A DNA stretch of 44,868 nt from a virus. A program made the translations under genes and the position numbers. Positions 1 through 40,474 of the stretch are shown piece by piece (the first letter of the stretch is position 1; every line of letters begins with the position of its first letter). The notes under the pieces were generated by a model that worked only from the letters and a program-made list of their open reading frames with translations, searched no databases and had not been told where the DNA came from. The stretch is from the IMG/VR virus record IMGVR_UViG_3300045988_145891; one strand, given 5' to 3'.

Positions 1-55
1 CACTTGTTGAATATCAATATCTTCTTGAATAACTTTAGGTTTCATTTTTCTTAAC
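1..55. repeat. Terminal redundancy: bases 1-55 are identical to 44814-44868, a circular-assembly overlap or terminal repeat
   Basis: Direct string identity between the first 55 nt and the last 55 nt of the window. Confidence 0.9.
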
Positions 56-228
56 GTTCTAAGACTTCCTGTTTCAGTAGGAATAAGATTAATTATTCTA
101 TTAGCTGTCAAATAATATATTTGACTATCTTTATTTATTCCTATCTTATCTCCGACTTCTCCTAAAGTATAATCAGTCTGATAGAAGCTAGTGGTTGATT
201 TATAGCCATATGAGTTACCCTTAGCCAT
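1..228 (-). CDS. N-terminal segment (~61 aa) of the tail tubular protein B-like (T7 gp12-like) gene, continuing in frame at 43140..44868 across the circular junction
   Basis: ATG at 226-228 preceded by RBS GAGGAGG at 7-nt spacing and overlapping the upstream stop (ATGGCTAA). It reads in frame (183 nt = 61 codons) into the MKPKVIQ start at 45, which equals 44858. Confidence 0.5.
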   Translation of the reverse strand, partial: MAKGNSYGYKSTTSFYQTDYTLGEVGDKIGINKDSQIYYLTANRIINLIPTETGSLRTLRKMKPKVIQEDIDIQQV

Positions 229-817
229 TATATACACCTCCTCTAAGATTTAATGGTATTGCACTTCCCTCAGCTAATATAACATTAGTTTTCTCAACTT
301 GTAACTTACTTTCAAGATATGGTAACCTATCAGCATACATTGGTATAGTTTGAGCAAGTTTAACTGCTAACATCAATACAAGATAGTCCTTAATATACTC
401 TGGAAATTCTGTTAGTGGTAATCTTCTAACATAGTTAAGTATTAATGGGTTAGAGTATGAGTAGATATATTCTCCCTCTAATCTTAAATCAATAGGTCTA
501 TTTCCCCTAACTAAAGTCTGAATACTCTCAACTGTAAAAGGTGTTCTAGTATTAACAATAGGTTTCTTCTTAATTCCTAAAAAATCTTCTGGAACATTAT
601 ATCTATGTTCTCCTGTGTTAGTATCTAATTCACTAACTGTTAGTTGTACTGTTGTACTTGGAAAGTTAAACTCATTACTCTTACATACACTATCAGCTAT
701 ACTATTTAGTAACTTGGTTGCCATCTGATATATGTTACTTCTGTTATCATTGTAGTCAGTAATGTTTCCAACTGTAATAAGTGCTAATTCAATAATTTGT
801 CCTCTTTCTAACATTAT
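221..817 (-). CDS. Tail tubular protein A-like (T7 gp11-like adaptor/gatekeeper), ~198 aa
   Basis: Size and position immediately upstream of a ~630-aa partner. N-terminal and C-terminal (PE....Y.V) patterns resemble T7 gp11. Probable start is the third ATG, 8 nt after GGAGTG. Confidence 0.45.
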   Translation of the reverse strand: MMLERGQIIELALITVGNITDYNDNRSNIYQMATKLLNSIADSVCKSNEFNFPSTTVQLTVSELDTNTGEHRYNVPEDFLGIKKKPIVNTRTPFTVESIQTLVRGNRPIDLRLEGEYIYSYSNPLILNYVRRLPLTEFPEYIKDYLVLMLAVKLAQTIPMYADRLPYLESKLQVEKTNVILAEGSAIPLNLRGGVYNG

Positions 818-841
818 CATCACTCCTTTTTGATTTTATTA

Positions 842-870
842 TAACATAAAAGGCTAGGTGTTCCCTAGCC
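842..870. terminator. Hairpin GGCTAGG-tgttc-CCTAGCC with flanking T-rich tract between the holin stop and the gp11-like start
   Basis: 7-bp perfect stem with T-rich tracts on both strands. Confidence 0.35.
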
Positions 871-1134
871 ATTATTTTTCTTCCTTATTTCATCTGTTAG
901 TGCTTTGATTAATTTTCCGTGTTCTTCTAGTGCTTTTGTTGATTCTAACTGAATTTTAGAATTGACTTCTAATAGTTGCCTATTTGCAGCCATCAAATAA
1001 TTCATAAATTCAGTGTTTTGGTCTATAATCTTTTGAACATAGTGTTTCATCATTAAAACTACAACTATACCTATTGTTCCATTAATACCAGCTTCCTTTA
1101 ATACTTTAATTAAATCTAATTCCATAGGCACCAC
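865..1134 (-). CDS. Small holin-like protein (N-terminal TM, charged helical C-terminus; BhlA/UviB-type architecture), 89 aa
   Basis: One predicted TM (GINGTIGIVVVLMM) followed by coiled-coil. Lies immediately downstream of the endolysin. Confidence 0.45.
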   Translation of the reverse strand: MVPMELDLIKVLKEAGINGTIGIVVVLMMKHYVQKIIDQNTEFMNYLMAANRQLLEVNSKIQLESTKALEEHGKLIKALTDEIRKKNNG

Positions 1135-1512
1135 CTAATCATTTATTTGTACATGAGGTCCATCAATAAAGGTTTCCCAATATGCACCACATTCAATATT
1201 AAATCCAAGTCTATGAGCTAATTGCATTATAACATCAGCAAACTCTCTATAATACTTAATATCCCAAGTAACTTGTCCATTCTCATCTATTATTGCAATA
1301 TCAAAGGCACTACCTGTCAAGTGTTTAGATTTCATAGTCTTAGATTTACCCTCTGCTACAAGTTGCTTTTGTCTTTCCTCTGTCCTAACTCCCTCAGTTA
1401 CAACAAAATCATACGGGGAATAGTCCAGCATTAAACCAAGAAGTATTATCAGTCTAAAGTCAATACCTTCTATGTTAGATAAACTTCTTTTACTAAATTT
1501 GTATTTAGTCAT
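1135..1512 (-). CDS. Endolysin, peptidase M15 family (L-alanyl-D-glutamate / D-Ala-D-Ala zinc peptidase), single domain, 125 aa
   Basis: Motifs SKHLTGSAFDI (H-x3-G-x-A-x-D) and DGPHVQ (D-x-x-H) typical of Peptidase_M15/VanY-type lysins. No cell-wall-binding domain. Confidence 0.7.
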   Translation of the reverse strand: MTKYKFSKRSLSNIEGIDFRLIILLGLMLDYSPYDFVVTEGVRTEERQKQLVAEGKSKTMKSKHLTGSAFDIAIIDENGQVTWDIKYYREFADVIMQLAHRLGFNIECGAYWETFIDGPHVQIND

Positions 1513-1525
1513 ATTAAAACCTCCT

Positions 1526-1891
1526 TTATATTGTTATATAATCTTTTATATTATTAAAAGTTGTTTCTCCTATAAACTTTCTAATCTCGTATATATCTTT
1601 ATAAGGTCTGTTTTCTATTATCTTATTAGCTTTGACTTCTCCTATTCCATCAAGACTATCTAAAGCTTCATAAGAACAGTCATTAATATTAATCTTGTCT
1701 ATATTAGGTTTATTATCTATATTCACTATTTGAGCATTAGTCTGATAATTGTTATTATAAAAATTAGCTTTATAAAACATTATATTTAATGCAGCTAACA
1801 TAAACATTCCTAAAATATTTATGATACATAGAAAAAATACTAATTTAACAACCAAGTTTACATTTAGATTTCCATTTCTTTTTAAATTCAT
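1526..1891 (-). CDS. Membrane-anchored ComEA-like helix-hairpin-helix DNA-binding protein, ~121 aa
   Basis: N-terminal TM. C-terminus ININDCSYEALDSLDGIGEVKANKIIENRPYKDIYEIRKFIGETTFNNIKDYITI matches the ComEA HhH tandem (LxxLPGIG...GIGEKTFEKIKDYITV). RBS GAGGTGG before ATG at 1891. Confidence 0.65.
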   Translation of the reverse strand: MNLKRNGNLNVNLVVKLVFFLCIINILGMFMLAALNIMFYKANFYNNNYQTNAQIVNIDNKPNIDKININDCSYEALDSLDGIGEVKANKIIENRPYKDIYEIRKFIGETTFNNIKDYITI

Positions 1892-1962
1892 ATTTACCAC
1901 CTCATTTGTATTGTATCATTAAATTAAATTTTACGCTATAATCAATTTAGGTAGGTGGTGGT

Positions 1963-2154
1963 ATGTTATTTAGAAAGAATGTAGATTATGAAAAGATAAG
2001 TTTTAATTCTCCAAAAGAAGTGGTTAAGAAGATAGATGAGATAAGTGAGTTTTACTTTTGCAATAGAACTGATGTCATAAATGAAGCTATTAATTATTAT
2101 CACAAAAGTTTTAAAAAGAAATTGAATAGACTAGAAAAAAGAGAGCCTAAATAG
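1963..2154 (+). CDS. Ribbon-helix-helix (CopG/Arc/MetJ-like) DNA-binding protein, 63 aa, encoded antisense to the surrounding late operon
   Basis: RBS AGGTGGTGG. Pattern beta-strand KISFNSPKEV then helix ...NRTDVINEAINYY (R-S/T-D/E-h-I-x-EAI hallmark of RHH). Confidence 0.5.
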   Translation: MLFRKNVDYEKISFNSPKEVVKKIDEISEFYFCNRTDVINEAINYYHKSFKKKLNRLEKREPK

Positions 2155-2161
2155 ACTCTCT
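2134..2161 (-). terminator. Rho-independent terminator (AGAGAG-loop-CTCTCT + T6) after the 100-aa gene, overlapping the 3' end of the plus-strand RHH gene (bidirectional)
   Basis: 6-bp GC-containing stem followed by TTTTTT on the minus strand. Confidence 0.55.
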
Positions 2162-2165
2162 AATT

Positions 2166-2468
2166 TTATACTGTGAATTTAGAAATTTTCATTTTTAATT
2201 CTTCAATGTTTTCTATAACATAACAGTAGAATGTCTTATATTCAGAACTTCCTGTCATATTATTTGCTTTTTTATAAGTTTCTATCTTATCTTTGATGAT
2301 ATCTGCGTGTTCCATTCTTGATTTAGCGTCAGCCATTGTAAATCTAGCCATTTCTTTCTCATCATGTTCTTTCATCTTAATAGCTTCCCAATACATTCTC
2401 ATTCCATCATCAAGGTCATCTTGCATACGTCTATAAAGACTTTCTAATACTATATCGTGTTTTTCCAT
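2166..2468 (-). CDS. Hypothetical protein, 100 aa
   Basis: ORF with RBS in the late operon. No recognisable motif. Confidence 0.4.
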   Translation of the reverse strand: MEKHDIVLESLYRRMQDDLDDGMRMYWEAIKMKEHDEKEMARFTMADAKSRMEHADIIKDKIETYKKANNMTGSSEYKTFYCYVIENIEELKMKISKFTV

Positions 2469-2544
2469 TATATATCCTCTCCTATCATAAATCCTATTAT
2501 CATTCCTATTAGAAAAAAGAAGTTTTGCATAATATCACTTCCTT

Positions 2545-2868
2545 TTATTGTCCTCTCATCATTGAATAAAGTTTGTCAATATCCTGTTCGTTGAATATCA
2601 ATCCTTTTATTTCAATTTTACCTCCGGTAGCTTTTATTCCCTCTTTAGCTGCCTTGTATAATGCTTCTATATCAACATTTCCATCTTGGTCTATAATTTC
2701 CATAGACTGTAACAACTTCATGTGTTCTTGAATTAATTTTTCAGTTTTCCCCATAACTAGAACACTTCCTGTTGCTAATGCAAATTTCATTAATGAACTT
2801 GGCATAACAGGTAGTACTACATCTTTTATATATTTTCCTATTACTAATTCTACATCAACGATTTTCAT
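2545..2868 (-). CDS. Hypothetical protein, 107 aa
   Basis: ORF in the late operon. No recognisable motif. Confidence 0.4.
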   Translation of the reverse strand: MKIVDVELVIGKYIKDVVLPVMPSSLMKFALATGSVLVMGKTEKLIQEHMKLLQSMEIIDQDGNVDIEALYKAAKEGIKATGGKIEIKGLIFNEQDIDKLYSMMRGQ

Positions 2869-2917
2869 AGATTATCTCCTTTTTAGAAATTAAGGGTAGA
2901 TTTCTCTACCCTGTAAT

Positions 2918-3533
2918 TTATTTAGTTTGAGCATTTCCTGTAATGCTTACATTTGTAGGTGCTGCTGCAGTTGGTGCTGTCCAAGAGTTAAACTCTGGCA
3001 TAGGTTGTGGACAAATACTTCCTATTGGCATTACTAATTTACCTGGTACGAATGTTGCATTTACATAACAGTATAAGTTGTTATCTCCTGCAACTCTTCT
3101 TTCAGACTCGACTGCAATAGCTCCAGAAAGTCTTTCTTCAACTGCTTTTAATTTAAGGTCATTGATTTCTTGGTCTTTAGCCATAGTAGTTTTAATACAT
3201 TCAACTTCTTTATCAAGTCTTGAAACTGCATTTCCTACTTGTAAGAAACCATCAGTTACTTTTGCTAAAACTGCAGCTAATTTCTCATCTTCTTTTCTGA
3301 ACTCATTAAAAGTTTCCTTTTGAGTTGCTAGAGCAACTTGGTCTGCATATCTCTCTCCTCTACATTGAGCTAATTCTGCTTCTAATGTAGAAACTCTGTT
3401 AGTTGCACAGTTGTTACCAAAAAAGTCCTCCTAAAAGTCCATTCCCACAATTGCCATTCATTAGTCCTAATGCAGTACCTGCTATACCTAGTCCTAGTCC
3501 TGCTCCTGCTACACCTTTACTTGCGTATTCCAT
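2918..3533 (-). CDS. Frameshifted gene: N-terminal glycine-zipper TM segment (39-aa ORF 3414-3533), then a +1-frame coiled-coil and Pro/Cys-rich C-terminal part (open frame 3418 to 2918); i-spanin-like architecture
   Basis: Strong RBS AGGAGG before ATG 3533. The first frame stops at TAA 3414-3416, but the second frame is open with no start codon for 78 codons upstream of MAKDQ (3184). The junction is a T6/A6 homopolymer at 3419-3424. Confidence 0.5.
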
Positions 3534-3636
3534 AATGATACCTCCTAATAATATTATTAGAGATTTCTCTCTTAACTGAATAATATCACTTATTAAGAGA
3601 TAATATTGAAAAGAGTATAAAATAATATCAAGGCAA

Positions 3637-3670
3637 TAAAAAAAGCTAGAATAAATCTAGCTTTAAAAAA
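3637..3670. terminator. Bidirectional rho-independent terminator (AAGCTAGA-ataaa-TCTAGCTT flanked by A/T runs) after the membrane-protein gene
   Basis: 8-bp stem with T-runs on both strands. Confidence 0.55.
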
Positions 3671-3673
3671 ATT

Positions 3674-4006
3674 TTATTTTATTTTTTTGTCCATATGTTT
3701 TTTACCTAAAATCATACCTCCAAGTGCTAAAACAAGATAAGTTAGTTCCTCTGGAATAGGTAGAACATATATTTGTTTTCCAGTAAATGCAGTTAAGTAA
3801 GGTGCAACTATATGTTGATTAATTACCAATAATGAATAAACATAGAATAAGTGGAGTATTCCACCTCTTTCTATTATTCCAGAAAAAGCATTAATTTTTG
3901 TTTTTTCAACATCAGCCATTATCTCATCTACTTTTCCCTTGTCTAAATGTCTTTGGAGTAACTCTGGTAAAAATCTTTTTATTAAACCTAATATAAAATT
4001 ACTCAT
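3674..4006 (-). CDS. Small membrane protein with 2 predicted TM helices (possible holin), ~110 aa; start at the internal ATG with RBS GGGGG
   Basis: Hydrophobic segments LHLFYVYSLLVINQHIV and LTYLVLALGGMILG. The RBS supports the MSNF start rather than the ORF-track MYRKY start. Confidence 0.4.
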   Translation of the reverse strand: MSNFILGLIKRFLPELLQRHLDKGKVDEIMADVEKTKINAFSGIIERGGILHLFYVYSLLVINQHIVAPYLTAFTGKQIYVLPIPEELTYLVLALGGMILGKKHMDKKIK

Positions 4007-4106
4007 AATATACCCCCTATACTTTGCTATTCGTTGAATAATGTATTTCCTATACAAAATACTATAATTAATAGTCTAATGTATAAGAATTGATTTTAGA
4101 TATAAA

Positions 4107-6089
4107 TTATAGATTTTTAAGTGTATCATTCAATTTATCAACTTCATCAAAACTAAAAGTTCTAGGTTTAGTTTCTACTTTAGGTGTAGATGTAGTTCCT
4201 AAATATTTCTCCATAAATTTTACAACACTCTCTGGAATAGTAGGCTCTTCTAATCTCTCAACTAAACTCAAGTTCATCATTACATTGTTACCATACTGTT
4301 GCTCGAACTCTTCCCAAGTTAGATTAGGGTTGTCTTGTAATAATAACTCGTAAGCTTCGTATTTAGCTTTTTGTTCTGCTTCAACTTGTTTATCATACTT
4401 AAATTTCTCTAATGAATATTCTAAATAATCTTGTTTAACCCCCTCTAGTTCCATAGCATACTGCATTGTAGGTGTGTTAAGTGTCGAAATAACTTCATTA
4501 TTCAATGTTATTAATTTATTTTTTTCAGCTAACCTAAATATCAAATTGTTAAAGTCACTTTCAGTGTATGCAAACTTAGAATGTTGTGAAGTTAATATCC
4601 CTTTTGGGTTAAACGCATCATAAACATCTTTACTCTTATAATATCTTACTCCATCTACATTTAATTCATATTTAAAATCTCCTAAAGGTTGAACTAAAAC
4701 GTTGTAGTTACCTATTCTTGAATTAGATATATATATACTTACATTATCTCCATTTACATCAATAATTCTTTTTCCCGTTAAACCATTTTCGTATTCGAAT
4801 TTAGAATTTGATATATTAATATTAGCACTTGTTTTAATAACCCCCATAGCTGTATTTGCAGGTGCTGGAATAGCACTGAACAATCCTTTATTTGTTGTAG
4901 AATGATAATAAATAATTACATCACTCATAGTTGTCGGTTGATTAGTGTCTATCAAATAACCATCTATTCTCTCAGAAGAAAAGTTATTTATAATGCAATC
5001 TCCGTCGCCTCTTGAGTAAAAGAATGGTGTTGCTATATTTATTGTTCCGTTGTATTTCGATTGAACACCATAGCAATTACTTACAGACCAACCGTTGTTG
5101 TTTTGAGAATGTACAAAAAATCTTCCTGCATCAACGTGACATTGGTCTATAAATATATGGTTAGCACTACCTGTTATTTCCAATCCAGCGGTAAGCTCAT
5201 AAGCTTTATTGTATCCATAACATAAGCAATTACTTATATTACCCCAATCCATTCTACCTAACTTTATGAATGTAGCATTTGTTATTAACCTTTCCATTAA
5301 ATTTGGAGCAGAACTTCCTGTAAGACCTACTATATTAGGGTTTGAGTGTATTCTAGTTATATTATTTGCATCAACACATTTATCAATATGAATAAAAGTT
5401 TTTGTAGCAACCCCAATGACATCATCTATATAACTAGCTAGCAATCCTTTTGTAGCATCTATACCTACACAACACAATCCTAACGAAACTCTTTCTAATT
5501 TACAATACCCACCACTTTCTTTAAAATATACTTGAGCTTCACATTCTACATACTCATCTTTTGGAACACTAGAAAAACCATCATTCTGATAATAAGCCAT
5601 TCTTTTAATAGTTAAGTTTCTACATTTAAATCTATCCCCTACAATGAGTCCTTTACCTAAATGATTTACTGATATACCTAAATCATATATTTGAGTATTA
5701 TACTTTTTAGTTTCCAATTCTGATGAAACAAGGTAGAATTTATTTACATCTCCTCTTATTATATTTATGTAATTTAAAGCCTTTTGTATAGCTTGGGTGT
5801 CGTCTGTTTTGGTGTCTCCTTTAGCTCCAAACCAAGATACATTTACTTCTCCATTGTGTATAATATTAGCCCATTTACCATTATCAATCTGGATACCAGA
5901 ACCATCATCACTGTCAGCAATTATTCTCTTATGATTAGCTCCATCTCCAGCTTGGTAGTAGCCAAGAATTTCTACTACCTTGCCAGATTTTAATTTACTA
6001 TCTTTTTGCATTTCTGCTATTGTATTATATACTTTTGCATTACCACCTAGTAGTCCTATACCAAGTGGTACTGATTTATCTTTAGCCAT
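4107..6089 (-). CDS. Tailspike / depolymerase with pectate-lyase-like right-handed beta-helix, 660 aa
   Basis: N-terminal motif WFGAKGDTKTDDTQAIQKAL (Pectate_lyase_3 / GH28-type signature). Size and position next to the tail fibre. Confidence 0.65.
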   Translation of the reverse strand: MAKDKSVPLGIGLLGGNAKVYNTIAEMQKDSKLKSGKVVEILGYYQAGDGANHKRIIADSDDGSGIQIDNGKWANIIHNGEVNVSWFGAKGDTKTDDTQAIQKALNYINIIRGDVNKFYLVSSELETKKYNTQIYDLGISVNHLGKGLIVGDRFKCRNLTIKRMAYYQNDGFSSVPKDEYVECEAQVYFKESGGYCKLERVSLGLCCVGIDATKGLLASYIDDVIGVATKTFIHIDKCVDANNITRIHSNPNIVGLTGSSAPNLMERLITNATFIKLGRMDWGNISNCLCYGYNKAYELTAGLEITGSANHIFIDQCHVDAGRFFVHSQNNNGWSVSNCYGVQSKYNGTINIATPFFYSRGDGDCIINNFSSERIDGYLIDTNQPTTMSDVIIYYHSTTNKGLFSAIPAPANTAMGVIKTSANINISNSKFEYENGLTGKRIIDVNGDNVSIYISNSRIGNYNVLVQPLGDFKYELNVDGVRYYKSKDVYDAFNPKGILTSQHSKFAYTESDFNNLIFRLAEKNKLITLNNEVISTLNTPTMQYAMELEGVKQDYLEYSLEKFKYDKQVEAEQKAKYEAYELLLQDNPNLTWEEFEQQYGNNVMMNLSLVERLEEPTIPESVVKFMEKYLGTTSTPKVETKPRTFSFDEVDKLNDTLKNL

Positions 6090-9000
6090 TTATATCCTCC
6101 TTAAGAAACTTTCAATTTTATCAACATAATACTTTTTATATCCCTCTTCATTAGGGTGCCAACCATCTGATTGATAAGTATATTTTGCTCTTAAACTAGG
6201 TATGTAGTTTAGTGGTGGACAATCAGAATGTAAGTCAACATATGGTATTCCCCATTTCTTTAACATTTCAATAGATATATCATAGTAACTTTCATCATAA
6301 GTGACACTCATTTTGTGAACTATAATAAATCCTATTTTTTTACCAGCGAAACGTTCAACTGTTTGTTTGCACATAGATTCAAAAGCTCCACAGTATGTTG
6401 TATCATCAAATGATTTATCATATCCATCAGTTATAGTTCCTAACGGGGCTTTAACTCCTCCGTCATTTACACCACCTTCAAGTAATACATAATCTGCATC
6501 TGTATCTAAATCTTGTATAGAACGACAAATCCAAAACCTTTTAGCTCCTGATGAAGAATATTGTTCTGCTGTAATAGTCCCACCACCAACAGCTATATTT
6601 TGATATTTCATATTATTTCTATCAGCTATAATTTTGCCATAACCACCTAAAAATCCAGCACCAGCACAGATGCTATCTCCTGTTAATGCTATTTTTTTAC
6701 CATATAGTATATTTGTAGCCACATCTATATTGTCTTTTAAATCTACATTAGGTATTATTTCTTTATACCCATATGGTACATATTCATCAGAAATATAATT
6801 CAAATAACAAGTATGATTATCTATACGTCCTAAAACTCCATTCAATCTAACCTTAGATATTTTATTATTATGAGGAACTTCATATAGTCCTTTTATCTGT
6901 GTTCCAGTAGTAGGTTCTTCATAGCTTATTCTTTTCAAAGTGCTTATTTTATTACCAGCATCATCATAACAATAACCACCAATAGCCTCTCCGTATTGTG
7001 GCATATATATCTTATCTAAAGATTTAATTGGTATAAAGTTAGTTAAAAAATATCTCGTATGGTCTTTTATATCTCCTACACCATCAACATATACGTTTGG
7101 TGTTATATCGTTTTTATTGAATAAATTTACATACTTTATATTTGTAGAACTGCCTAGTGAATACGATTTTATCTTTTCTTGAGTAATACTATTATCCTTT
7201 ATCATTTGTTTTTCTATTGATTTGACAAACTTTTTCCCGAAAATTAATTCGTTATACTCATAATATGTATTATCAAATTCCCTATTGATAGATATAACTA
7301 TTTCATTCTCTCTTAATGTACGATAATTAACTTTTACATATGATATTGTTTTATCATTAGGAACTCTATATCTACCTTTTGTTTGTTTTATACCCGGTGA
7401 CTCCTCTTCATACCCTTCTCTCACTAAATCTGCAACAAAAACATCATCAGAAGTATAACAAGACCCACCTTTAGGTTCTCCATATAAATTATTTCTGATT
7501 AAATCATTAGGTTGAACTTTTATTTTATGAGAATAAGAATATGCCTCGTCCGTTAAAATCTCACCGCTAGATAAATAACCACCATCAACATTTTCAATTG
7601 AGCCTTTATCAAAATAGTTCCCTATATCTATATCTTCAATTTTTCTTACAGTAACAGCATTATCAGCTATTTTATTTGTTGTAATTGAATTATCTTCAAT
7701 AGTAGGAGATACTGGAGTTTCTCCTGTCATAGCATTTATAACTTCTTCTGATAGATTTATTAATTTAATTTTGTCAGAGTCAGATGATGTTTTGAATTTA
7801 TATGCTGGGATAGAGTTATCTTGTATATCTTGTTCTGATATTTTTTTATTCTTTAATTCTTCTATCTCTTGCATATTTGTATTACTGTTTCCTAAAGCCT
7901 TATTTATAGCATTAACTACATTTTTATCTGTATCGTTAATACCATTTTCAATTTTATTTAATTTTGAGTTATCTAAATCTTCTGCTGTTCCATTATAATT
8001 ACCTTTATCTAATTTTGATTCTTTCAACTCATTGATATCATATTTTGTAGCTAAACCAATTCTTTCTGCTGTATCTAAATCAACAACATCGTAATCTAAA
8101 TCATAACTATCTCCAATATCTATATAAGCAACTTGTTTACCATCTATTTCAGATATATGAGCTAAATATTGGAAAGTTCCTATTTCATTCTTAGTTCTTG
8201 ATAAACCACCATCTACTTCTTGAGATAGGAAATAATACTCATCATAAACAAATGTCTCTCCTTTATCATCTCTTGCTTGTGTAGGTATATTTACTACACC
8301 TCTAGTTACAACGTCAAATCTGTCGTTATCTATCTTAATCGCTATTCCATCAGCACTTGTATATTTATTTGCTTTTACCCATTTTCTTGTAGCTCCATCT
8401 AAAGTAACAGCAGTAAATACAAATCCGTGATTAGCTTGAGTAAATTGCATTGTATCAGTTTGCCCACCTAATTCTTGCCATTCACTCCATACTTCATTTA
8501 TTCTTACAACAAAGAGCATCTTTCCTGTTGTAGTATAATATCTAATTACTTGAGAGTTTCCACCATCAGTAATATCTTTCTTAACAACTCCTGCATTATC
8601 TGATGAGTTTAATTGAGGTGGATAATGAATATAATTTTTATTAAATAAATCTACTACTAACCAGTTACCTAAACCTATCTCAAGCCAGTCACTACCCTCT
8701 GGCATTAAACCTTTATCTGCTACTGCTTGGTCTATCATAGTTTGTAGTCTTTCTTCTAGTTGAGTAGTATAATCATCTAATCTTTGTTTTAAATCAGTTT
8801 CAACATACTCATCTAATTGTCTTTTAACTTCTTCTAGTAACTCTCTTTCAGCTACTTCTAAGTCTTGCTCTAGTAGTTTTAGAACTTCTTGTCTTAACTC
8901 TTGTACTAAGTCATTAAACTTCTCAAATAGGCTATCAACAGGCATAGCAGCCATATTACCGTCTTTATCCATATACCAAGTAGTATATGGTTTTAATTCT

Positions 9001-9446
9001 GCCATTATCTTGTTACCATTAGAACTATCCATTACCATACCAACATCTTTAAGATAAGTAAATAAGAAAGTAACATCAGCTATTACCTCATTTAAGTGTT
9101 GATTAAGAGTTATTACATCTATCTGTCCACTAGGACTGTATGGAGAAGAAGTTAAGTCAACTACTCTAGCTAATTGTATTGAGTAATACTCATCTAGTAT
9201 ATCTAGGTTAGTTATCTCTAATTGCTTATTTCCACCAACCTCATTAATTCTATAATCTCCCTTAGGCATTTCACTATAAGTTTCTAAGAAAGCTTCTTGA
9301 TTATATTTCCTATAAAACACTGTTACCTTAGTCATATCTATTGTATTAAGCTCATAAGTTGCTTGACCTTTAATAATTAAGAACTCCTTAATAGGTAACA
9401 TTATCTTACCATTTTTAAATCCTGCCATAATTCCTCCTTTATACAA
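6090..9446 (-). CDS. Tail fibre protein with coiled-coil shaft, tail-fibre repeat motifs and C-terminal SGNH/GDSL esterase domain, 1118 aa
   Basis: C-terminus carries GDS (KKIALTGDSICAGAGF), GxND (GGVNDGG) and DxxH (DGWHPN) SGNH blocks. Repeats DNSITTNKIADNAVTVRKI and DNSITQEKI. Long heptad coiled-coil at aa 170-235. Confidence 0.65.
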   Translation of the reverse strand: MYKGGIMAGFKNGKIMLPIKEFLIIKGQATYELNTIDMTKVTVFYRKYNQEAFLETYSEMPKGDYRINEVGGNKQLEITNLDILDEYYSIQLARVVDLTSSPYSPSGQIDVITLNQHLNEVIADVTFLFTYLKDVGMVMDSSNGNKIMAELKPYTTWYMDKDGNMAAMPVDSLFEKFNDLVQELRQEVLKLLEQDLEVAERELLEEVKRQLDEYVETDLKQRLDDYTTQLEERLQTMIDQAVADKGLMPEGSDWLEIGLGNWLVVDLFNKNYIHYPPQLNSSDNAGVVKKDITDGGNSQVIRYYTTTGKMLFVVRINEVWSEWQELGGQTDTMQFTQANHGFVFTAVTLDGATRKWVKANKYTSADGIAIKIDNDRFDVVTRGVVNIPTQARDDKGETFVYDEYYFLSQEVDGGLSRTKNEIGTFQYLAHISEIDGKQVAYIDIGDSYDLDYDVVDLDTAERIGLATKYDINELKESKLDKGNYNGTAEDLDNSKLNKIENGINDTDKNVVNAINKALGNSNTNMQEIEELKNKKISEQDIQDNSIPAYKFKTSSDSDKIKLINLSEEVINAMTGETPVSPTIEDNSITTNKIADNAVTVRKIEDIDIGNYFDKGSIENVDGGYLSSGEILTDEAYSYSHKIKVQPNDLIRNNLYGEPKGGSCYTSDDVFVADLVREGYEEESPGIKQTKGRYRVPNDKTISYVKVNYRTLRENEIVISINREFDNTYYEYNELIFGKKFVKSIEKQMIKDNSITQEKIKSYSLGSSTNIKYVNLFNKNDITPNVYVDGVGDIKDHTRYFLTNFIPIKSLDKIYMPQYGEAIGGYCYDDAGNKISTLKRISYEEPTTGTQIKGLYEVPHNNKISKVRLNGVLGRIDNHTCYLNYISDEYVPYGYKEIIPNVDLKDNIDVATNILYGKKIALTGDSICAGAGFLGGYGKIIADRNNMKYQNIAVGGGTITAEQYSSSGAKRFWICRSIQDLDTDADYVLLEGGVNDGGVKAPLGTITDGYDKSFDDTTYCGAFESMCKQTVERFAGKKIGFIIVHKMSVTYDESYYDISIEMLKKWGIPYVDLHSDCPPLNYIPSLRAKYTYQSDGWHPNEEGYKKYYVDKIESFLRRI

Positions 9447-18766: not shown

Positions 18767-19771
18767 ATGGAAAAAATAATTAAAACAATAAAAGATGGAC
18801 AAGTGTTTTTAAATACTAAAAAACATGGAGTAAATGCTATTATTAATTTGGGTGGCGTTGATCAAGTACAGATATACAATACACTAGAAGCAGATGTATT
18901 TTTACAGACTGATTTAATTAAAAAAGCTTTTAACGTGCTAGATGATGGCGATATAGAAATATTAAAAGACAAAAAATTAACATTTAAGCAAGATAAAATT
19001 AATTTAAAGGTTGAATTTGAAGAGAATAAAAAGAGTATTGAAGAGTTTAAAGCAGAACATGAAATAATAATTGAGCCTGGAGACATTGAAAAAATAATTA
19101 ATCTTAAAAAAGATATAAAACCAGATGCTGATGCTGTTAAGTATGTTTACATTTCAGATGCTGGAATTGCTGCAACTGATTCTTATAGACTTGGAGTTTA
19201 TAACTCTAATATCTCAAACATTGATACTTGGTTTATGATCCCTTATGCAGTGATAGACTTTTTAGAACTTACAAAAAATAAAATCAAAGTACTAAAGAAA
19301 GAACACAATTACATGTTAGAACTTGGTAGAGGTATAAAAATAACTTGGAAAAATTTTTATACACATTATCCAGACGTTAGAAATGTAATTAAATTCGGAG
19401 ATACTATGGAATGGAACGCAACCTTAAACAGAAAAGAGCTTGAAAAAGTATTGAAAAAAGCTGTTAAAATATCAGTGGATAACACAGAGAATAAAAATAG
19501 TACTCTATGGACTATCAAAAAATATTCTAACATCTTAGAAATTTACGCAGCTAATAAAAAAATGGATATTACACAGGAATTAAAAATTGAAGCTGAACAC
19601 GATTTAAAAATATCACTTAATGGTCCAAATATATTAGATTACTTAAAAAGAGTTAAAAAAGATGATGTTAATTTCAAATTCATAGGATCTAATTCAATGA
19701 TAGTATTTGAAAATGATGATTATAAATATTATTGCATGCCATTAGCTTGGAGAGATAAAGATGATAAATAA
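18767..19771 (+). CDS. DnaN-like DNA polymerase sliding clamp (beta subunit homolog), 334 aa
   Basis: Motif IAATDSYRLGV matches DnaN ATDSHRLA. Downstream IPYAVIDFLELTK resembles DnaN VIPGKSLTELSK. YPD motif. C-terminal MPLAWRD resembles the clamp C-terminus. Confidence 0.55.
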   Translation: MEKIIKTIKDGQVFLNTKKHGVNAIINLGGVDQVQIYNTLEADVFLQTDLIKKAFNVLDDGDIEILKDKKLTFKQDKINLKVEFEENKKSIEEFKAEHEIIIEPGDIEKIINLKKDIKPDADAVKYVYISDAGIAATDSYRLGVYNSNISNIDTWFMIPYAVIDFLELTKNKIKVLKKEHNYMLELGRGIKITWKNFYTHYPDVRNVIKFGDTMEWNATLNRKELEKVLKKAVKISVDNTENKNSTLWTIKKYSNILEIYAANKKMDITQELKIEAEHDLKISLNGPNILDYLKRVKKDDVNFKFIGSNSMIVFENDDYKYYCMPLAWRDKDDK

Positions 19772-21402: not shown

Positions 21403-22071
21403 CTACTTATTTAAGTTATCATATAAAGTTTTTAAATGCTTGTCTGATAGTTTTTCTATCGGTGTATCTTCTGGTAACTTAAAGAATTTTAATACATTCT
21501 CATAATATCCAGCTTGTTTATTTTGTAATTTGATAGGTATTTCTTTTAACATAACCTGTCTATCTAGTTCTTCCACATTTTTCTCAATAGGTTTTTCTTT
21601 TTTCTTAGATTGCTTAGGCTCTGGTGTATCATCTTCTGGTTTTCTATTTGGATTGTCTATATCATCTTCATCAGTCTTGATATGGAAATACTTAAGTAAG
21701 AAATATCTCTCTGCATATGTTAAGATACTACCTACACCTTTCTCCCAGTCATTCATACCACTAGCAGCAAATCTATTCTCATCTTTTTCCCCTGTTTCAA
21801 CATCTACCCAAGTGAATAGTAACTCTGCTGTATATAGTATTTCTGATTTTTCACTATTCTTAGACTTATAATCTATTCTCTCGTGAGTTAGGTTAATAAT
21901 CTCTTGCTTTAATATCAATCCTACTTCATTCATAATAGGTTTAATATTATCCAACACCTTAGCTCCTGTTACATAATCATAATTGAAGCTTTTTTGATTT
22001 TTACCAAGTCCTACTACTCTTTTTTGGACTTCTAGTAGTTTTTGATAAATATTAAGTTTTTTTTCTTCCAT
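21403..22071 (-). CDS. erf: Erf-family single-strand annealing recombinase, 222 aa
   Basis: GKNQKSFNYDYVTGAKVLDNIKP and ASGMNDWEKGVGSILTYAERYFLLKYFHI resemble P22 Erf (NQYNSFGKYKYRS...; GATSSYARKYCLNGLFGI). Confidence 0.6.
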   Translation of the reverse strand: MEEKKLNIYQKLLEVQKRVVGLGKNQKSFNYDYVTGAKVLDNIKPIMNEVGLILKQEIINLTHERIDYKSKNSEKSEILYTAELLFTWVDVETGEKDENRFAASGMNDWEKGVGSILTYAERYFLLKYFHIKTDEDDIDNPNRKPEDDTPEPKQSKKKEKPIEKNVEELDRQVMLKEIPIKLQNKQAGYYENVLKFFKLPEDTPIEKLSDKHLKTLYDNLNK

Positions 22072-22449: not shown

Positions 22450-22605
22450 CTACTTATTTTTCAACTTCTCTGTTAAATCTTTAATCTTTTCTTCTAGCTC
22501 TGCAATATCCTTGTTTTTGCCTTTTTTACCTCTAATGTAGCAAGCAACAAATCCTAATATTCCTCCTACTACGAATCCTAATGCAAAATATCCTTGTGGT
22601 GTCAT
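22450..22605 (-). CDS. Small membrane protein, 51 aa (N-terminal TM + charged coiled-coil tail)
   Basis: RBS GGAGGT 7 nt before the ATG. Absent from the ORF track because it is shorter than 60 aa. Confidence 0.45.
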   Translation of the reverse strand: MTPQGYFALGFVVGGILGFVACYIRGKKGKNKDIAELEEKIKDLTEKLKNK

Positions 22606-23392: not shown

Positions 23393-23990
23393 AATAATCT
23401 ACAACATTGTTCATATCAACAAATTGTTCTCCTGGAACTTTCCTAAACTTCTTAATGGTCTTAGGATTAGTATTAGTATATTGACAATTAGGACAATAAA
23501 CATAATCGAAATTACCCTCATCTGCCATATTATATTCTCTCTCAATATGATAATCTCCTACACCAGCATAAGTAATAGCTTCCATATAGTTATATACAGC
23601 ATTTACATTATCTCTCCATATATATTTTAATGGTGTTCTACACTTAGGACACATTACTACTGTTCTGGCAGGTTTACCCATTTTAAATCTATTAAGAAAA
23701 TTTCTTATTACTCCATCTACTCTTATCAGCTTATGCATTATCTTAAAATAGAATCCAGAACCATCTTTGTACAATGTTAGGTTAGTGTATCTACTCTTTT
23801 CTGTATTATCTATCTTGTTTATTGTGGTACACCTAAACCTTATCTTACCTGTTGGTCTTATACTCTCAAACTCATAACACTTTATCAAGTCATCAAATTC
23901 TACTTTAAAACTTACGAAATTCAATAATACAGGAATATGTTTTCTTTTATCCTTGTAATCTTCCATATTTCTTTTACTTACATTAGCCAT
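23370..23990 (-). CDS. Hypothetical zinc-finger protein (CPKC...CPNC), 206 aa
   Basis: Two CxxC pairs. ORF overlaps its neighbours. Confidence 0.4.
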   Translation of the reverse strand: MANVSKRNMEDYKDKRKHIPVLLNFVSFKVEFDDLIKCYEFESIRPTGKIRFRCTTINKIDNTEKSRYTNLTLYKDGSGFYFKIMHKLIRVDGVIRNFLNRFKMGKPARTVVMCPKCRTPLKYIWRDNVNAVYNYMEAITYAGVGDYHIEREYNMADEGNFDYVYCPNCQYTNTNPKTIKKFRKVPGEQFVDMNNVVDYFEFKHKG

Positions 23991-24726
23991 CTAACTCATC
24001 TCCACCATCTAATGAAAATGCTCTAAAGTGAGCTGGGTAGACTTTCTTAACCTTTTCTATATCTCTATCACTTAACTTAATGCTTCCATAAGTATGATAT
24101 TTAAGTTTAAATTTAGTAGGTCCTATTGTATGTATCTCTGCGTGATGTTCTTTACATAGTGGAGATACAGGAAGTTGTCCTTTATCCTTAGCATAACCAC
24201 CAATGAATCCTACTGACTTTGCGTGATGTAGACTAGCTTTTCTACCACATACACAACATTTACCATTCATTAGAGCAGCATATACTAATTTTTCTTTTTG
24301 TTGATCCTCTAACATTTTTAGTAACTCTGGACTTAATTCTATTTCCTCATATACAAAGTAACCTATCAACCAATCAATAAACTTGGTAGCACTATTCTTT
24401 GAGAATAAAGCAGAGGATATGCTAAACACACCCTCTATCTTTATCTTAAAAAACTGAACTTCTCTTACTAATAACCTTTCTATCTCATCAGCTATTACCT
24501 CTTTATCTCCTGTTTGAGAGGTTTTATCTAATACCTTAAGTATTTTATCTCTTAAGTTACTGAAAGGCTCTATAATAACATTTGAGGAAGTCTGTTGGTA
24601 TTTCTTTTTTAGTTCTGTTAGTGATTGATTGACGTGGAATGAATCATCACTCTCATACACATACTTGGAATAACATTTAGCAAGAGCAAATATCATTTTC
24701 CTTTGCTTATCTGTTATACATTCCAT
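23983..24726 (-). CDS. HNH-nuclease-like zinc-finger protein, 247 aa
   Basis: C-terminal CCVCGRKASLHHAKSVG...LCKEHHAEIH (CxxC...HH...C..HH..H) HNH/His-Me-finger pattern. Confidence 0.45.
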   Translation of the reverse strand: MECITDKQRKMIFALAKCYSKYVYESDDSFHVNQSLTELKKKYQQTSSNVIIEPFSNLRDKILKVLDKTSQTGDKEVIADEIERLLVREVQFFKIKIEGVFSISSALFSKNSATKFIDWLIGYFVYEEIELSPELLKMLEDQQKEKLVYAALMNGKCCVCGRKASLHHAKSVGFIGGYAKDKGQLPVSPLCKEHHAEIHTIGPTKFKLKYHTYGSIKLSDRDIEKVKKVYPAHFRAFSLDGGDELDG

Positions 24727-24735: not shown

Positions 24736-24924
24736 CTATAACAAATTTAGTAATGGTGTCAATCCCCACCAAGATATAAAAGCTAAAATAGCTCTGAATA
24801 TTAACATTGATAACCACATTTTTAAATCATCAAAGTCTAAATATTCATTGTTAAGCATTTCTCTTAAAAATGTTTTTCCTGCTAATAGCCCTATCATTAT
24901 TCTTAAAAATAACCAAAAACTCAT
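24736..24924 (-). CDS. Small membrane protein, 62 aa (2 TM)
   Basis: Hydrophobic segments flanking a charged loop. Confidence 0.4.
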   Translation of the reverse strand: MSFWLFLRIMIGLLAGKTFLREMLNNEYLDFDDLKMWLSMLIFRAILAFISWWGLTPLLNLL

Positions 24925-29342: not shown

Positions 29343-30254
29343 ATGAATGAAGTAAAATGGATAAAAATAACTACTGATATTTTCGATGATGAGAAAATAA
29401 AACTTATAGACAGTATGCCAGATAGAGATACATTACTTGTGATATGGTTTAAGCTGTTGGCTATGGCTGGTAAAACTAATGACAGAGGTTTAGTTTATGT
29501 TATAAAAGAGATTCCTACTACTGATGAAATGTTAGCAACTATATTTAATAGACCTATCAATACAGTTAGATTAGCTCTCAAAACATTCTCTGATTTTGGA
29601 ATGATTGAGATAAATAAACATATAAATATAGTGAATTGGGATAAACACCAAAATGTAGATGGACTAGATAAAATAAGGGAACAAGCTAGATTAAGACAGG
29701 CTAGATATAGAGAAAAACAAAAGAATTTACTAGAAGATAAAAGTAACGTTACAGTAACGTCAAGTAACGCTCTAGATATAGATATAGAAAAAGAAAAAGA
29801 AATAGATAAGAAGAAAGATAAAAAAGAGAAAATTACAGAACAACTCAACGAACTAAATATATCTGATAGCCTAAAACAAAAGTTCATTGAGTTTATAGAA
29901 TACAGAAAACAAATTAAGAAACCATTAAAAACTATAAGACCTATAACTAGTGAGATTAATAAGATAGGTAAAGATTATCAATCAGAAGAACATTTAATAG
30001 AGAGTATAGATTTTAGTATGGATAAAGAATATCAAGGAATATTTCCTACTAAGAACTATAAATCTAATAAAGATACTAAACCTAGTATAGATACTAAGAT
30101 TGTAAATAGAATAGGTAAAATAGAAATGTTACTAGATACTAATAACATTATCTATGAGAAAGATAAGTTATTCTTAGAAGAAACACTAACTGATGATAGA
30201 TACAGTAATTATAGATATATACTAGATAAGATAGATAAAGCAGAGATAGTGTAA
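29343..30254 (+). CDS. Phage replisome organiser (Phage_rep_org_N family; DnaD-like replication initiator), 303 aa
   Basis: N-terminal WIKITTDIFDDEKIKLIDSMPDRDTLLVIWFKLLAMAGKTNDRGLVY matches the replisome-organiser N-terminal consensus. Low-complexity K/E/D linker. Confidence 0.6.
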   Translation: MNEVKWIKITTDIFDDEKIKLIDSMPDRDTLLVIWFKLLAMAGKTNDRGLVYVIKEIPTTDEMLATIFNRPINTVRLALKTFSDFGMIEINKHINIVNWDKHQNVDGLDKIREQARLRQARYREKQKNLLEDKSNVTVTSSNALDIDIEKEKEIDKKKDKKEKITEQLNELNISDSLKQKFIEFIEYRKQIKKPLKTIRPITSEINKIGKDYQSEEHLIESIDFSMDKEYQGIFPTKNYKSNKDTKPSIDTKIVNRIGKIEMLLDTNNIIYEKDKLFLEETLTDDRYSNYRYILDKIDKAEIV

Positions 30255-31523: not shown

Positions 31524-32840
31524 ATGAATGAATTAACTTTTGAAGATTTTAGCAAACTAAAAAAAGAAGAACAGTTAAATAAGTTAAAAGAGGAATATAA
31601 AAACAATAAGACTAATGAGGGAGAACTTAAAATATGCAATTTATTAGCAGTACATCAACTAAGTAAAAAACAGTTGAATCTTATCTTCCAAGCAGATAGA
31701 ATGTTTTTCTCCACGAATGTTAGAAAGTTTTTAGATATTTGTGAGGAAAAGTTTAATAATGATTTACCTATTACTTTTAGTCAAAATGAGATAAAAGATA
31801 TTAGTGTAATATCTCTCTTAGGTTCTGTGGTGGAGATTAACGCTAGTGAAGATATGTTAGTCGAGTATTTAAACCTTGTAATATTAGAATGGGCTAGAAA
31901 CAAGTTTGAGGAGCTTAGAACAGTACCGACAACAGAGAGTGCTTTAGAAAGAATGAATAGTATGATTAAAGCTATTGAGGGTACTGTATCTAGCACTAAA
32001 TATTATAATATTTCAGATGATATTATGTCAATGTTTGAATATTATGATAATGCAACTAAAGTGATGAAGTCTGGTATAAAGAGTTTTGATGATTGGTTTT
32101 TATTAGAGCCTACTGATGTACTATTACTTGGAGGTCAAAGTGGAACAGGTAAGACAGCATTTTCATTACAGCTGGTAGATGGTTTGGTAAACAATGGTAA
32201 TAGAGGTATTTTCTTTAGCTTAGAAATGAATAATATTCAAATGTATAGAAGATTAATAGCTATGAAAGGTAGTATAAATATATCTAAGCTAATGACTTCT
32301 GAAAGTTTTTCTAATCTATCCAAGACTGAATACAACAAATTCAATGAAGCAGTAGGTAAAATAAAAACTTATGGAGATAGGTTAGTAATGTGTTATGAAG
32401 CTCAATCTCTAATGGATATTATTTCCATTACCAAGAAAGAAAACTCAAAGAAAAAATTAGACTTCATAGTGGTAGATTATGTTCAGTTAGTTTCTCATAA
32501 AGCAGCTAGTGAAGTACAGAGAATAACTGAAATTTCATTAGAGTTAAAAAGACTTGCTAAAGAATTAGGAATAGTAGTAATAGGACTATCTCAACTTAGC
32601 AGAAAGAAAACTGATGGTACAGATATGACAGCTCTTAAAGGAAGTTCTCAATTAGAGAATGACGCTTCTCAAATACTCATTCTTAAATCAGAATTTGAAG
32701 ATGAAGAAGAACAAGATACAGATGACCTTAAATCTATTGTGGCTAATGTGAATAAAAATAGAAATGGTAGAGTAGGTAAATACAGAATGATGTTTAATAA
32801 ACCAATGCAAAAGTTTATAGATACAGAAGGGAGAAAGTAA
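31524..32840 (+). CDS. DnaB-like replicative helicase (RecA-fold C-terminal domain), 438 aa
   Basis: Walker A GGQSGTGKTAFSLQL, FSLEM (H1a), VVDYVQLV (Walker B/H2) and GLSQLSRK (H4) motifs. Confidence 0.8.
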   Translation: MNELTFEDFSKLKKEEQLNKLKEEYKNNKTNEGELKICNLLAVHQLSKKQLNLIFQADRMFFSTNVRKFLDICEEKFNNDLPITFSQNEIKDISVISLLGSVVEINASEDMLVEYLNLVILEWARNKFEELRTVPTTESALERMNSMIKAIEGTVSSTKYYNISDDIMSMFEYYDNATKVMKSGIKSFDDWFLLEPTDVLLLGGQSGTGKTAFSLQLVDGLVNNGNRGIFFSLEMNNIQMYRRLIAMKGSINISKLMTSESFSNLSKTEYNKFNEAVGKIKTYGDRLVMCYEAQSLMDIISITKKENSKKKLDFIVVDYVQLVSHKAASEVQRITEISLELKRLAKELGIVVIGLSQLSRKKTDGTDMTALKGSSQLENDASQILILKSEFEDEEEQDTDDLKSIVANVNKNRNGRVGKYRMMFNKPMQKFIDTEGRK

Positions 32841-35547: not shown

Positions 35548-35607
35548 TTTTGTTGGCGTCAACAAAACGATAAAAACAGAGAGGGATATACCCTCTCTTA
35601 TTTATTT
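35548..35607. terminator. Convergent bidirectional terminator region: hairpin TTTTGTTG-gcgt-CAACAAAA and hairpin AGAGAGGG-atata-CCCTCTCT with T-runs on both strands
   Basis: Two perfect 8-bp stems between the ends of the plus-strand early operon and the minus-strand late operon. Confidence 0.65.
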
Positions 35608-40434: not shown

Positions 40435-40454
40435 TATTCCTCCTTTTAAAAACT

Positions 40455-40474
40455 AAGTCGCATACGTGCGACCT
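40455..40474 (-). promoter_or_regulatory. Stable intergenic hairpin GTCGCA-(4 nt)-TGCGAC followed by a U-rich tract on the mRNA, between the 676-aa and 1610-aa genes (attenuator or processing site)
   Basis: 6-bp GC-rich palindrome in an otherwise AT-rich genome. Coordinates approximate to within 2 nt. Confidence 0.35.

Follow-up and report, generated by a model that had tools for sequence, protein, structure and literature searches.

The HhH gene and the protein that it encodes

This analysis concerns a virus DNA of 44,868 nucleotides (IMG/VR record IMGVR_UViG_3300045988_145891; hereafter the window, i.e., the whole stretch at its full length) and, within it, a minus-strand gene at positions 1526 to 1891. 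Its product is a small protein with a predicted N-terminal membrane anchor and a C-terminal helix-hairpin-helix (HhH) domain of the type found in the DNA receptor ComEA. The gene stands first in a lysis cassette, ahead of an endolysin gene and a holin-like gene, and genes of the same design head the lysis modules of other phages. The HhH gene itself is laid out as follows.

1526..1891, minus strand: HhH-protein gene, 121 amino acids, ATG at 1891 and stop at 1526-1528 (open reading frame list and sequence)
1897..1903, minus strand: Shine-Dalgarno sequence GAGGTGG, with a 5-nt spacer to the ATG of the HhH gene (sequence reading)
1772..1843, minus strand: codons of the transmembrane anchor, residues ~17-40 (hydropathy 2.7; helix 3-44 in the AlphaFold2 (AF2) model; poorly conserved in the family)
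1529..1705, minus strand: codons of the ComEA-type double HhH, residues 63-121, including K87, T111 and K116 (Pfam, profile and fold matches)

The C-terminal domain was recognized both by sequence and by fold. In Pfam, HHH_3 (PF12836) matched residues 63-120 at 40 bits, above the curated cut-off of 27 (E = 4.1e-10), and HHH matched residues 68-93 at 26.7 bits against a cut-off of 24. The AF2 model, for which the input was 22 family members, had a mean pLDDT of 78.8 (88-90 in the domain) and consisted of a helix over residues 3-44, a low-confidence linker at about 45-65, and a compact four-helix domain at 66-121. When this model was compared with the PDB by Foldseek, the Thermus ComEA-related protein 2DUY ranked first (rmsd 0.9 Å, 57 columns, TM 0.80) and the Geobacillus ComEA 8DSS second (rmsd 1.1 Å over 63 columns), followed by chains of PsbU at an rmsd of about 3 Å. 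The sequence search of the PDB with the family profile gave the same order, with E-values of 1e-13 for 2DUY, 5e-10 for 8DSS, 2.5e-9 for 8DFK, and ~5e-4 for PsbU. An earlier note on this DNA had claimed, from the letters alone, that the C-terminal 60 or so amino acids form a ComEA-type tandem HhH, and the profile search that it had proposed as a check bore this out. The same note had placed a transmembrane segment at the N-terminus, and here, too, the data agreed: residues ~17-40, with a Kyte-Doolittle value of 2.7, are the strongest hydrophobic segment of all late genes, and Lys4, Arg5, and Lys16 ahead of it predict an N-in/C-out topology. The HhH protein is, therefore, most likely a type-II membrane protein, as modelled, with a flexible linker that carries the HhH domain on the outward side of the cytoplasmic membrane. 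An uncleaved anchor was favoured because the hydrophobic core is 24 residues long and no A-x-A site is conserved across the family. This family comprises about 25 clusters with 47-98% identity, found on contigs of 37-45 kb, and given its existence, the HhH gene is real.

Conservation was inspected in an alignment of the window clade (A1) and in one across lineages (A2). In A2, the HhH domain is the sole part conserved, with N70, L77, L80, I83, G84, I91, I92, R95, P96, Y97, G108, and T111 invariant. The transmembrane and juxtamembrane part is conserved within lineages only, and in the window clade the invariant positions cluster in a juxtamembrane 'M-FYKANFY' segment and in the HhH domain, the membrane helix being variable. 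Throughout the window clade, an 'NxCS' motif keeps its Cys72, a position at which ComEA has Ala; in other lineages, a Cys lies two or three residues before the C-terminus (loci L003, L006, L007, L010, L024, and P0028), and several proteins have both. Such a pattern would suit a disulfide outside the cytoplasm, formed within one subunit or between two. Regarding the contacts with DNA, the substitutions K164A and K199A in B. subtilis ComEA each cut transformation by more than 2 log, and in the model of the Geobacillus protein, K166, K195, and T196 touch DNA phosphates (PMC9747964). In the profile alignment, these contact residues correspond to K87 (GIGEVKA), K116 (NNIK), and T110/T111 of the window protein. 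In the window clade, neither K116 nor T111 varies, and 21 of the 22 members have Lys or Arg at the K87 position. The equivalent of K193/K195 is Thr, and hairpin 2 is shortened.

The relation to ComEA is one of domain type. With the proteins of B. subtilis, G. stearothermophilus (8DFK/8DSS), and V. cholerae, the phage protein shares the atypical double HhH lacking a connector helix (PF12836), the key DNA-contact Lys and Thr with a superposition of 1.1 Å rmsd, and an HhH placed outside the cytoplasm behind an N-terminal anchor or signal, which in the phage protein is predicted from hydropathy, positive-inside flanks, and AF2. It differs in being about 60% of the size of Gram-positive ComEA, in its shorter inter-hairpin loop ('RPY' form) and the 2-residue deletion in hairpin 2, and in the position of its gene, which lies in a lysis operon and not, as that of ComEA, in the comE operon. 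It scored 33.8 bits with the TIGR01259 comEA model, under the cut-off of 152.35, and 24.6 bits with TIGR00426, under the cut-off of 53.1. There was no match to the oligomerisation/SLBB domain (PF10531), residues 45-65 being the low-confidence linker, and no comEB, comEC, or other competence context beside the gene, whose neighbours are the endolysin, holin-like, and tail genes. The HhH protein is, thus, a ComEA-type DNA-binding module and not a ComEA orthologue or family member; the term 'ComEA-like' of the earlier note holds for the domain, and as a statement of family membership it failed on the TIGR cut-offs, the SLBB domain, and the competence context alike. The Thermus thermophilus protein 2DUY, top match by sequence and structure, shares the short loop in its 'GRPY' form; it differs in being a cellular protein, crystallised as a 75-aa chain that lacks a membrane anchor, with no lysis-gene context. 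PsbU, the 12-kDa extrinsic protein of photosystem II, has an HhH_3-type fold as well and also works outside a cytoplasm-equivalent compartment; its matches are far weaker, and the window protein scored 19.3 bits with the PsbU model NF002708, under the cut-off of 85. PsbU is not known to bind DNA.

Other known families gave little. PHROGs had no family for the HhH protein (only a weak partial match to phrog_20695) and none for seven relatives, and holin families were likewise not matched in Pfam or PHROGs, either by it or by the seven relatives. Spanin and exclusion families gave no match either, and an identity as i-spanin was rejected, as the outward part is a globular HhH domain and not a coiled coil. 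An o-spanin or lipobox reading frame, sought on the coding strands of the window as a check for a diderm-type cassette, was not found.

The lysis unit and its recurrence in other phages

The HhH gene is followed on the same strand by the two further genes of the cassette, and these, together with the hairpins that border the unit and a divergent gene upstream, are listed here.

1135..1512, minus strand: M15 endolysin (L-Ala-D-Glu peptidase type), single domain, 125 amino acids (Peptidase_M15_4, E = 1.9e-9; phrog_465 'endolysin', E = 1.9e-45)
865..1134, minus strand: holin-like protein of 86-89 amino acids, probable ATG at 1125 (hydropathy, AF2, homologues at loci L029 and L032)
852..870, minus strand: terminator-like hairpin closing the three-gene unit (terminator scan)
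2140..2161, minus strand: terminator-like hairpin ending the upstream unit of tail-fibre and small genes (terminator scan)
1963..2154, plus strand: divergent gene for a 63-aa ribbon-helix-helix (RHH, CopG-like) protein (repressor matches phrog_876 and phrog_7325, E ~ 1e-3)

The M15 endolysin gene begins 13 nt past the HhH gene. The 86-89-aa protein had no family match in Pfam or PHROGs, and its assignment as a holin is drawn from its architecture: the AF2 model (pLDDT 89.5) has a short N-terminal helix and a continuous helix over residues 17-85, and the protein has a short N-terminus and a weak membrane segment containing Gly, Asn, and Thr, which is typical of hole-forming helices. The scan returned 8 terminator-like sites in 4.2 kb compared with 1.3 expected. 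Tightly packed between such hairpins, the HhH, endolysin, and holin-like genes look like a separate transcription unit, and since the hairpin at 2140-2161 ends the unit upstream, this lysis unit needs a promoter of its own. The gene order and the hairpins, therefore, support the placement of the HhH gene as first in a cassette with endolysin and holin, as the earlier note had it, with the qualification that 'holin' refers to architecture. The RHH gene, which is separated from the HhH gene by the intergenic space 1892-1962, interrupts the one-directional late region. Its product is 50% identical to the counterpart at L001, its position and orientation are kept in relatives, and a small opposite-strand gene occupies the same spot in 6 of 7 clade loci (L001, L002, L030, L032, and L033 among them). 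Through repression or transcriptional interference, it may set the timing of the lysis unit.

Within the window clade, the order from the HhH gene to the M15 gene is kept at 50% identity, the two genes overlap by 8 nt at L001 and L002, and all three genes of the unit are present at L032. The HhH gene stays with a holin-like gene where the endolysin gene is absent or elsewhere. At L029, a clear homologue of the 86-aa protein directly follows the HhH gene with no endolysin gene between them, and none was found at the locus; at L033 and L034, a 107-aa membrane-helix protein is encoded directly after the HhH gene, and a 139-aa lysozyme endolysin lies 2 kb upstream.

Scans beyond the window clade covered IMG/VR, cultured phages, and genomes. 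The HhH proteins found in other lineages have 96-128 aa, with an N-terminal hydrophobic helix and a short 'RPY'-type HhH, and are encoded in different phage backbones. Altogether, in at least six phage lineages, which between them have at least five endolysin types, the lysis module begins with a gene for an HhH protein of this membrane-anchored design. The main arrangements were as follows.

Clostridium phage CB452P1 (Mu-like myovirus, host C. butyricum BSC452): after the HhH gene, a membrane-helix protein, Phage_holin_1, and a lysozyme with choline-binding repeats
L006, L010, L024: a 2-TM (two transmembrane helices) protein before the HhH gene, and after it phrog_1625 (L006, L010) or a similar 103-aa unscanned protein (L024); the endolysins are VanY+PG_binding (L006), a further unclassified type (L010), and an amidase (L024)
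L007, L018, L020, L021, L022: after the HhH gene, phrog_2429 or phrog_1625, then an Amidase_2-type endolysin
L008, L015, L019: after the HhH gene, phrog_2429, Amidase_3, and a 62-aa 2-TM holin-like protein
L013, L014, L016: after the HhH gene, a phrog_199 holin, then a 487-aa peptidase+amidase
Partner genes: L003 6150-6617; L035 4321-4704; L006 5342-5668; L007 5322-5594; L008 5186-5413; L024 1936-2247

At all true phage loci examined, the HhH gene lies past the tail genes, in or beside the lysis genes, and it is first in the lysis module except at L033 and L034, where the endolysin gene is upstream, and L029, where none was found. A gene for a holin-like membrane protein adjoins it at all loci examined, or is next but one where the M15 gene intervenes. 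This placement recurs whatever the class of the endolysin or the morphotype of the phage. In other lineages, this partner has 75-155 aa, with an N-terminal membrane segment and a long coiled-coil-like helix, and phrog_2429 and phrog_1625 (UviB/BhlA-like) account for most of the partners scanned. The UviB-type label of these two families reads 'bacteriocin production or immunity', and Holin_BhlA was matched by two members at sub-threshold scores. The same architecture, an N-terminal membrane segment and a long helix, is shared by BhlA/UviB (PF10960) and the 86-aa protein of the window. The partners at L006 and L010 also gave weak 'Rz-like spanin' matches, and the flanking charges were ambiguous as to the membrane orientation of the partner proteins. 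The earlier note had called a phage copy placed with endolysin and holin unusual; with its recurrence in at least six lineages, the arrangement is no isolated case.

The protein of CB452P1, product of gene CB452P1_000029, could undergo signal cleavage; it was found as an identical copy on 22 metagenomic contigs, and this phage gave the only match when the window HhH protein was searched by tblastn against 50,697 phage records. A near-identity DNA search of positions 1-8000 of the window against cultured phages gave no match. The scan of genome contigs returned two loci only: the cassette recurred in a Bacillota metagenome-assembled genome (MAG), and a match in Bacteroidales was unconvincing. 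In a set of 5.8 billion proteins, cellular multi-repeat HhH proteins dominated the profile search, and no fusion of HhH with holin or endolysin was among the 120 matches listed. From the viral scan, L009/L023 was rejected because the match was a DNA polymerase III alpha-like HhH segment. The lysis region of Fusobacterium phage JD-Fnp3, checked for a counterpart, has no HhH gene and other neighbours. Literature searches for a ComEA-like or HhH protein within a lysis cassette turned up no relevant paper. The HhH family is a known domain in a new and conserved functional context, and the recurrence of anchored HhH proteins at lysis modules across phages is the new result of this analysis. It also fills an annotation gap, since PHROGs has no family for these proteins and IMG names one cluster member 'competence protein ComEA'.

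Role of the HhH protein

The HhH protein is most likely neither a competence protein nor a holin itself. Of the functions considered, that of an accessory lysis protein with extracytoplasmic DNA as its ligand is the likeliest. That it has a role in lysis, as gene context and sequence suggest, we regard as evenly poised between true and false, and that it controls lysis timing by sensing DNA is a tentative proposal by analogy, which we would sooner expect to fail than to hold. In this proposal, the HhH protein would be produced alongside the endolysin and its holin-like neighbour, all three encoded by a lysis unit of their own, its domain would bind double-stranded DNA outside the cytoplasm irrespective of sequence, and the lineage-specific transmembrane and juxtamembrane segment would couple this binding to the triggering of the adjacent holin. 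The protein would then act as an antiholin-like sensor of lysis timing, with the logic of T4 RI/T and no homology to it. The reasoning is that the sole universal part is a DNA-binding-type domain outside the cytoplasm, so the protein probably reports or exploits DNA there. A lineage-specific anchor and juxtamembrane segment joined to a universal domain fits a sensor, and it equally fits a simple tethered DNA trap; co-transcription with endolysin and holin-like neighbours points to a lysis-accessory or timing role more than to classical superinfection exclusion. In T4, the periplasmic RI/T complex binds DNA, and the DNA of the superinfecting phage has been proposed as the signal for lysis inhibition (PMC8385771). 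Like RI, the HhH protein is a small phage protein whose domain is predicted to be periplasmic behind an N-terminal signal or anchor, with a putative part in lysis control and DNA as proposed ligand. By its architecture and its position beside holin-like genes in six lineages, it would suit an antiholin of the RI type, if it acts on a holin.

Several observations speak against a DNA-sensing timer. Neither in sequence nor in fold does the HhH protein resemble T4 RI, and PHROGs and the sequence and fold searches of the PDB brought up no relative among RI or antiholin families. The holin of T4 offers RI a large periplasmic domain to bind; of the holin-like partners here, hardly anything is predicted to lie outside the cytoplasm, so that coupling could only go through membrane segments. 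In the HhH protein, the membrane helix combines strong hydrophobicity with low conservation, which is what a plain anchor would show. The 86-aa protein of the window and the UviB/BhlA-like partners show no detectable homology (hhalign probability 0.8%), and the pairing of HhH and holin-like genes is, therefore, defined by architecture and not by ancestry. As to the ligand, PsbU illustrates that the same fold can serve protein-protein contacts with no DNA binding; hairpin 2 has lost two residues in the window clade, including the first Gly of the G-h-G motif; and the K87 position is Leu in several other lineages, as it is in Thermus 2DUY. Because of the degenerate hairpin 2 and this Leu, binding of DNA by the HhH domain, to which the sequence points, is put as likely and not as certain. 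The net charge was dropped as a test of DNA binding because it is uninformative: the phage family ranges from -3 to +4, a span that includes the -2 of the Geobacillus domain, for which DNA binding is experimental.

Among the other explanations, superinfection exclusion, which the earlier note had raised alongside a tethering of DNA during lysis, is unlikely and still deserves serious attention. Here, a ComEA-like receptor lacking the oligomerisation domain, and so unable to support uptake, would act as a decoy that traps incoming phage or transforming DNA, or would compete with host ComEA. Ltp of phage TP-J34, a surface-anchored exclusion protein made of DNA-binding-type helical domains, is a precedent for such a design, and Sie2009 and T4 Imm and Sp are likewise small phage proteins displayed on the outward side of the membrane; all of these differ in being products of lysogeny or early genes, expressed before or without lysis, and none is homologous to the HhH protein. 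The domain is of DNA-binding type and predicted to face outwards. Moreover, ComEA deprived of its oligomerisation domain keeps DNA binding and has a transformation defect of about 1000-fold, which makes a version lacking that domain a plausible dominant-negative (PMC9747964), and for one Enterococcus phage, ComEA of the host is a reported receptor determinant (PMC9009173). However, the HhH gene lies between terminator-like hairpins, sharing its unit with endolysin and holin-like genes, and would, thus, be expressed late, when exclusion brings little benefit; early or lysogeny modules are where known exclusion genes are found. The steady placement beside holins in six lineages would be left unexplained, and the DNA of a podophage, ejected via a trans-envelope channel, would not be exposed to a periplasmic binder. 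A ligand other than DNA appears improbable. It would be a protein partner, as for PsbU, or a polyanionic phosphodiester polymer like teichoic acid, and the protein would position or regulate the lysis machinery. The similarity to PsbU and T2SSK, weak and repeated, goes in this direction, as do the degenerate hairpin 2, the replacement of the key Lys in other clades, and the choline-binding repeats with which some partner endolysins attach to teichoic acid. Nevertheless, the best sequence and structure matches are true DNA-binding domains of ComEA and not PsbU, K116 and T111 are invariant, and the likely host is a diderm that has no teichoic acids.

The possibility that the HhH protein is a holin was also considered in the earlier note, as a canonical holin; the protein proved unlike one, having no match to holin families. 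In a modified form, it would pair with the 86-aa protein to make up a two-component holin, its outward domain comparable to that of the T4 holin T, and we rate this as quite improbable. It has the strongest membrane helix of the late genes, the window endolysin has no canonical multi-pass holin beside it, a holin-like gene is always adjacent, and two-holin cassettes are common in Firmicutes phages. Yet this helix is very hydrophobic and not conserved, with none of the polar or Gly-rich character of hole-forming helices, the C-terminus is the folded HhH domain, predicted outside the cytoplasm, in place of a charged cytoplasmic tail, and several relatives already have one or two recognisable holins (Phage_holin_1, phrog_199). 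Very unlikely in our estimate is handling of DNA after lysis, in which chromosomal or unpackaged phage DNA, released once the holin has opened the membrane, would be tethered to membrane debris, with less entrapment of virions or a shaping of biofilm DNA. Late co-expression with lysis genes, a predicted outward non-specific DNA binder, and an anchor-like helix would suit it, but there is no precedent, the selective advantage is unclear, a small membrane protein would hardly match the amount of DNA released, and why the gene keeps so close to holin genes, and not to that of the endolysin, is not explained. A functional substitute for ComEA that boosts or hijacks DNA uptake by the host, e.g., for nucleotide scavenging, is hardly credible: beyond the homology to ComEA and the IMG label on a cluster member, everything is contrary, namely both failed TIGR thresholds, the lack of comEB and comEC neighbours, expression with lysis genes just before the cell is destroyed, and the absence of the oligomerisation domain, which is essential in Gram-positive ComEA (PMC9747964).

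Returning to DNA sensing in lysis, the wider claim that HhH proteins are a widespread, unrecognised class of DNA-sensing regulators, by which phages infecting anaerobic Bacillota and Fusobacteriota control lysis, is rather doubtful at present. If so, the sensed DNA would come from superinfecting phage or lysed neighbours, and the adjacent holin would be delayed or triggered in a density-sensing mechanism of the lysis-inhibition type, evolved independently of T4 RI/T. Decisions on lysis timing are understood in only a few model systems, and periplasmic DNA as the signal for lysis inhibition in T4 is a recent proposal from one system. A bona fide DNA-receptor-type domain, predicted to lie outside the membrane and linked to holins in many unrelated phages, provides a testable handle on lysis timing. 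Should these proteins be DNA-sensing regulators, they would give direct genetic support to extracytoplasmic DNA as a general signal for lysis timing; should they block DNA entry instead, a new mechanism of exclusion or anti-transformation derived from a truncated host receptor would have been found. The weight of the finding lies in its recurrence across phages and in the cultured carrier CB452P1.

Genome setting and probable host of the window phage

The first 55 nt of the window (1-55) are identical to the last 55 nt (44814-44868), indicating that the window is complete, circular or circularly permuted, with 44,813 unique bases. A tail-protein reading frame at 43140-44858 probably continues across this junction to about 210, its counterparts at L029 and L032 having 605-634 aa. 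The late minus-strand genes start with the large terminase and a 514-aa portal-like connector (PHROG 'head-tail adaptor'), followed by a block of unannotated reading frames where capsid and scaffold genes are expected. The fibre and tailspike genes, several small genes, the lysis unit, and the tail and internal-virion block come thereafter, and the insertion of the lysis unit between the tail-fibre genes and this last block is an unusual position. Other genes of the window are listed here.

6090-9446, minus strand: 1118-aa tail fibre with GDSL esterase domain
4107-6089, minus strand: 660-aa pectate-lyase-like tailspike, next gene after the fibre
221-823 and 35602-44858, minus strand: tail/internal-virion block
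18767-19771, 29343-30254 and 31524-32840, plus strand, and 21403-22071 and 23983-24726, minus strand: replication/recombination set

The tail block encodes two tail proteins, of 200 aa (phrog_394) and of at least 572 aa (phrog_376), then an internal virion protein of 209 aa (phrog_805), which has a membrane helix at its N-terminus, and finally two proteins, of 676 and 1610 aa, that had no family match; their order and sizes recall T7 gp11, gp12, gp14, gp15, and gp16, a resemblance seen by our own reading and not by any tool. The replication set includes a DNA polymerase III beta-like sliding clamp, a replisome organiser (Phage_rep_org_N, E = 2.5e-48), a DnaB-type helicase, an ERF recombinase, and an HNHc_6 nuclease. 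Of the window proteins scanned, none was recognised as an integrase.

Regarding the host, the portal-like connector (29%) and the N-terminus of the fibre are closest to Fusobacterium phages phiBB and FNU4, and the endolysin is closest to Fusobacterium phages JD-Fnp2, JD-Fnp3, and JD-Fnp5 (54%), then to phages of Proteobacteria. The closest named endolysins from MAG bins are four of Fusobacteriaceae, including Cetobacterium (69-80%), and two of Paraclostridium (69-78%). Contrary hints are the esterase end of the fibre, which is like that of Bacillus and C. perfringens phages, the lack of an o-spanin candidate, and the replisome organiser, a type known mainly from Firmicutes phages. On these similarities, we lean towards a host among the Fusobacteriaceae, which are diderms. 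The HhH domain would accordingly be periplasmic in the window phage, and in the relatives from Clostridia phages it would lie in the wall zone.

The tail fibre is mosaic, joining the N-terminus like that of phiBB and FNU4 to a GDSL/SGNH esterase at residues 920-1105, which is 35% identical to the Bacillus and C. perfringens phage proteins; together with the tailspike, this suggests two carbohydrate-modifying receptor-binding proteins. Directly past the tailspike gene, a 127-aa reading frame (3674-4057, minus strand) that had no family match has two moderately hydrophobic stretches in its C-terminal half, below the membrane-helix threshold, and could be another lysis-related membrane protein. 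Two small membrane-protein reading frames in the early/replication region, at 22450-22605 and 24736-24924, both on the minus strand, encode a 51-aa protein that combines a single membrane helix with a Lys-rich tail and a 62-aa protein with two hydrophobic segments, and are alternative candidates for holin, exclusion, or host-takeover functions.

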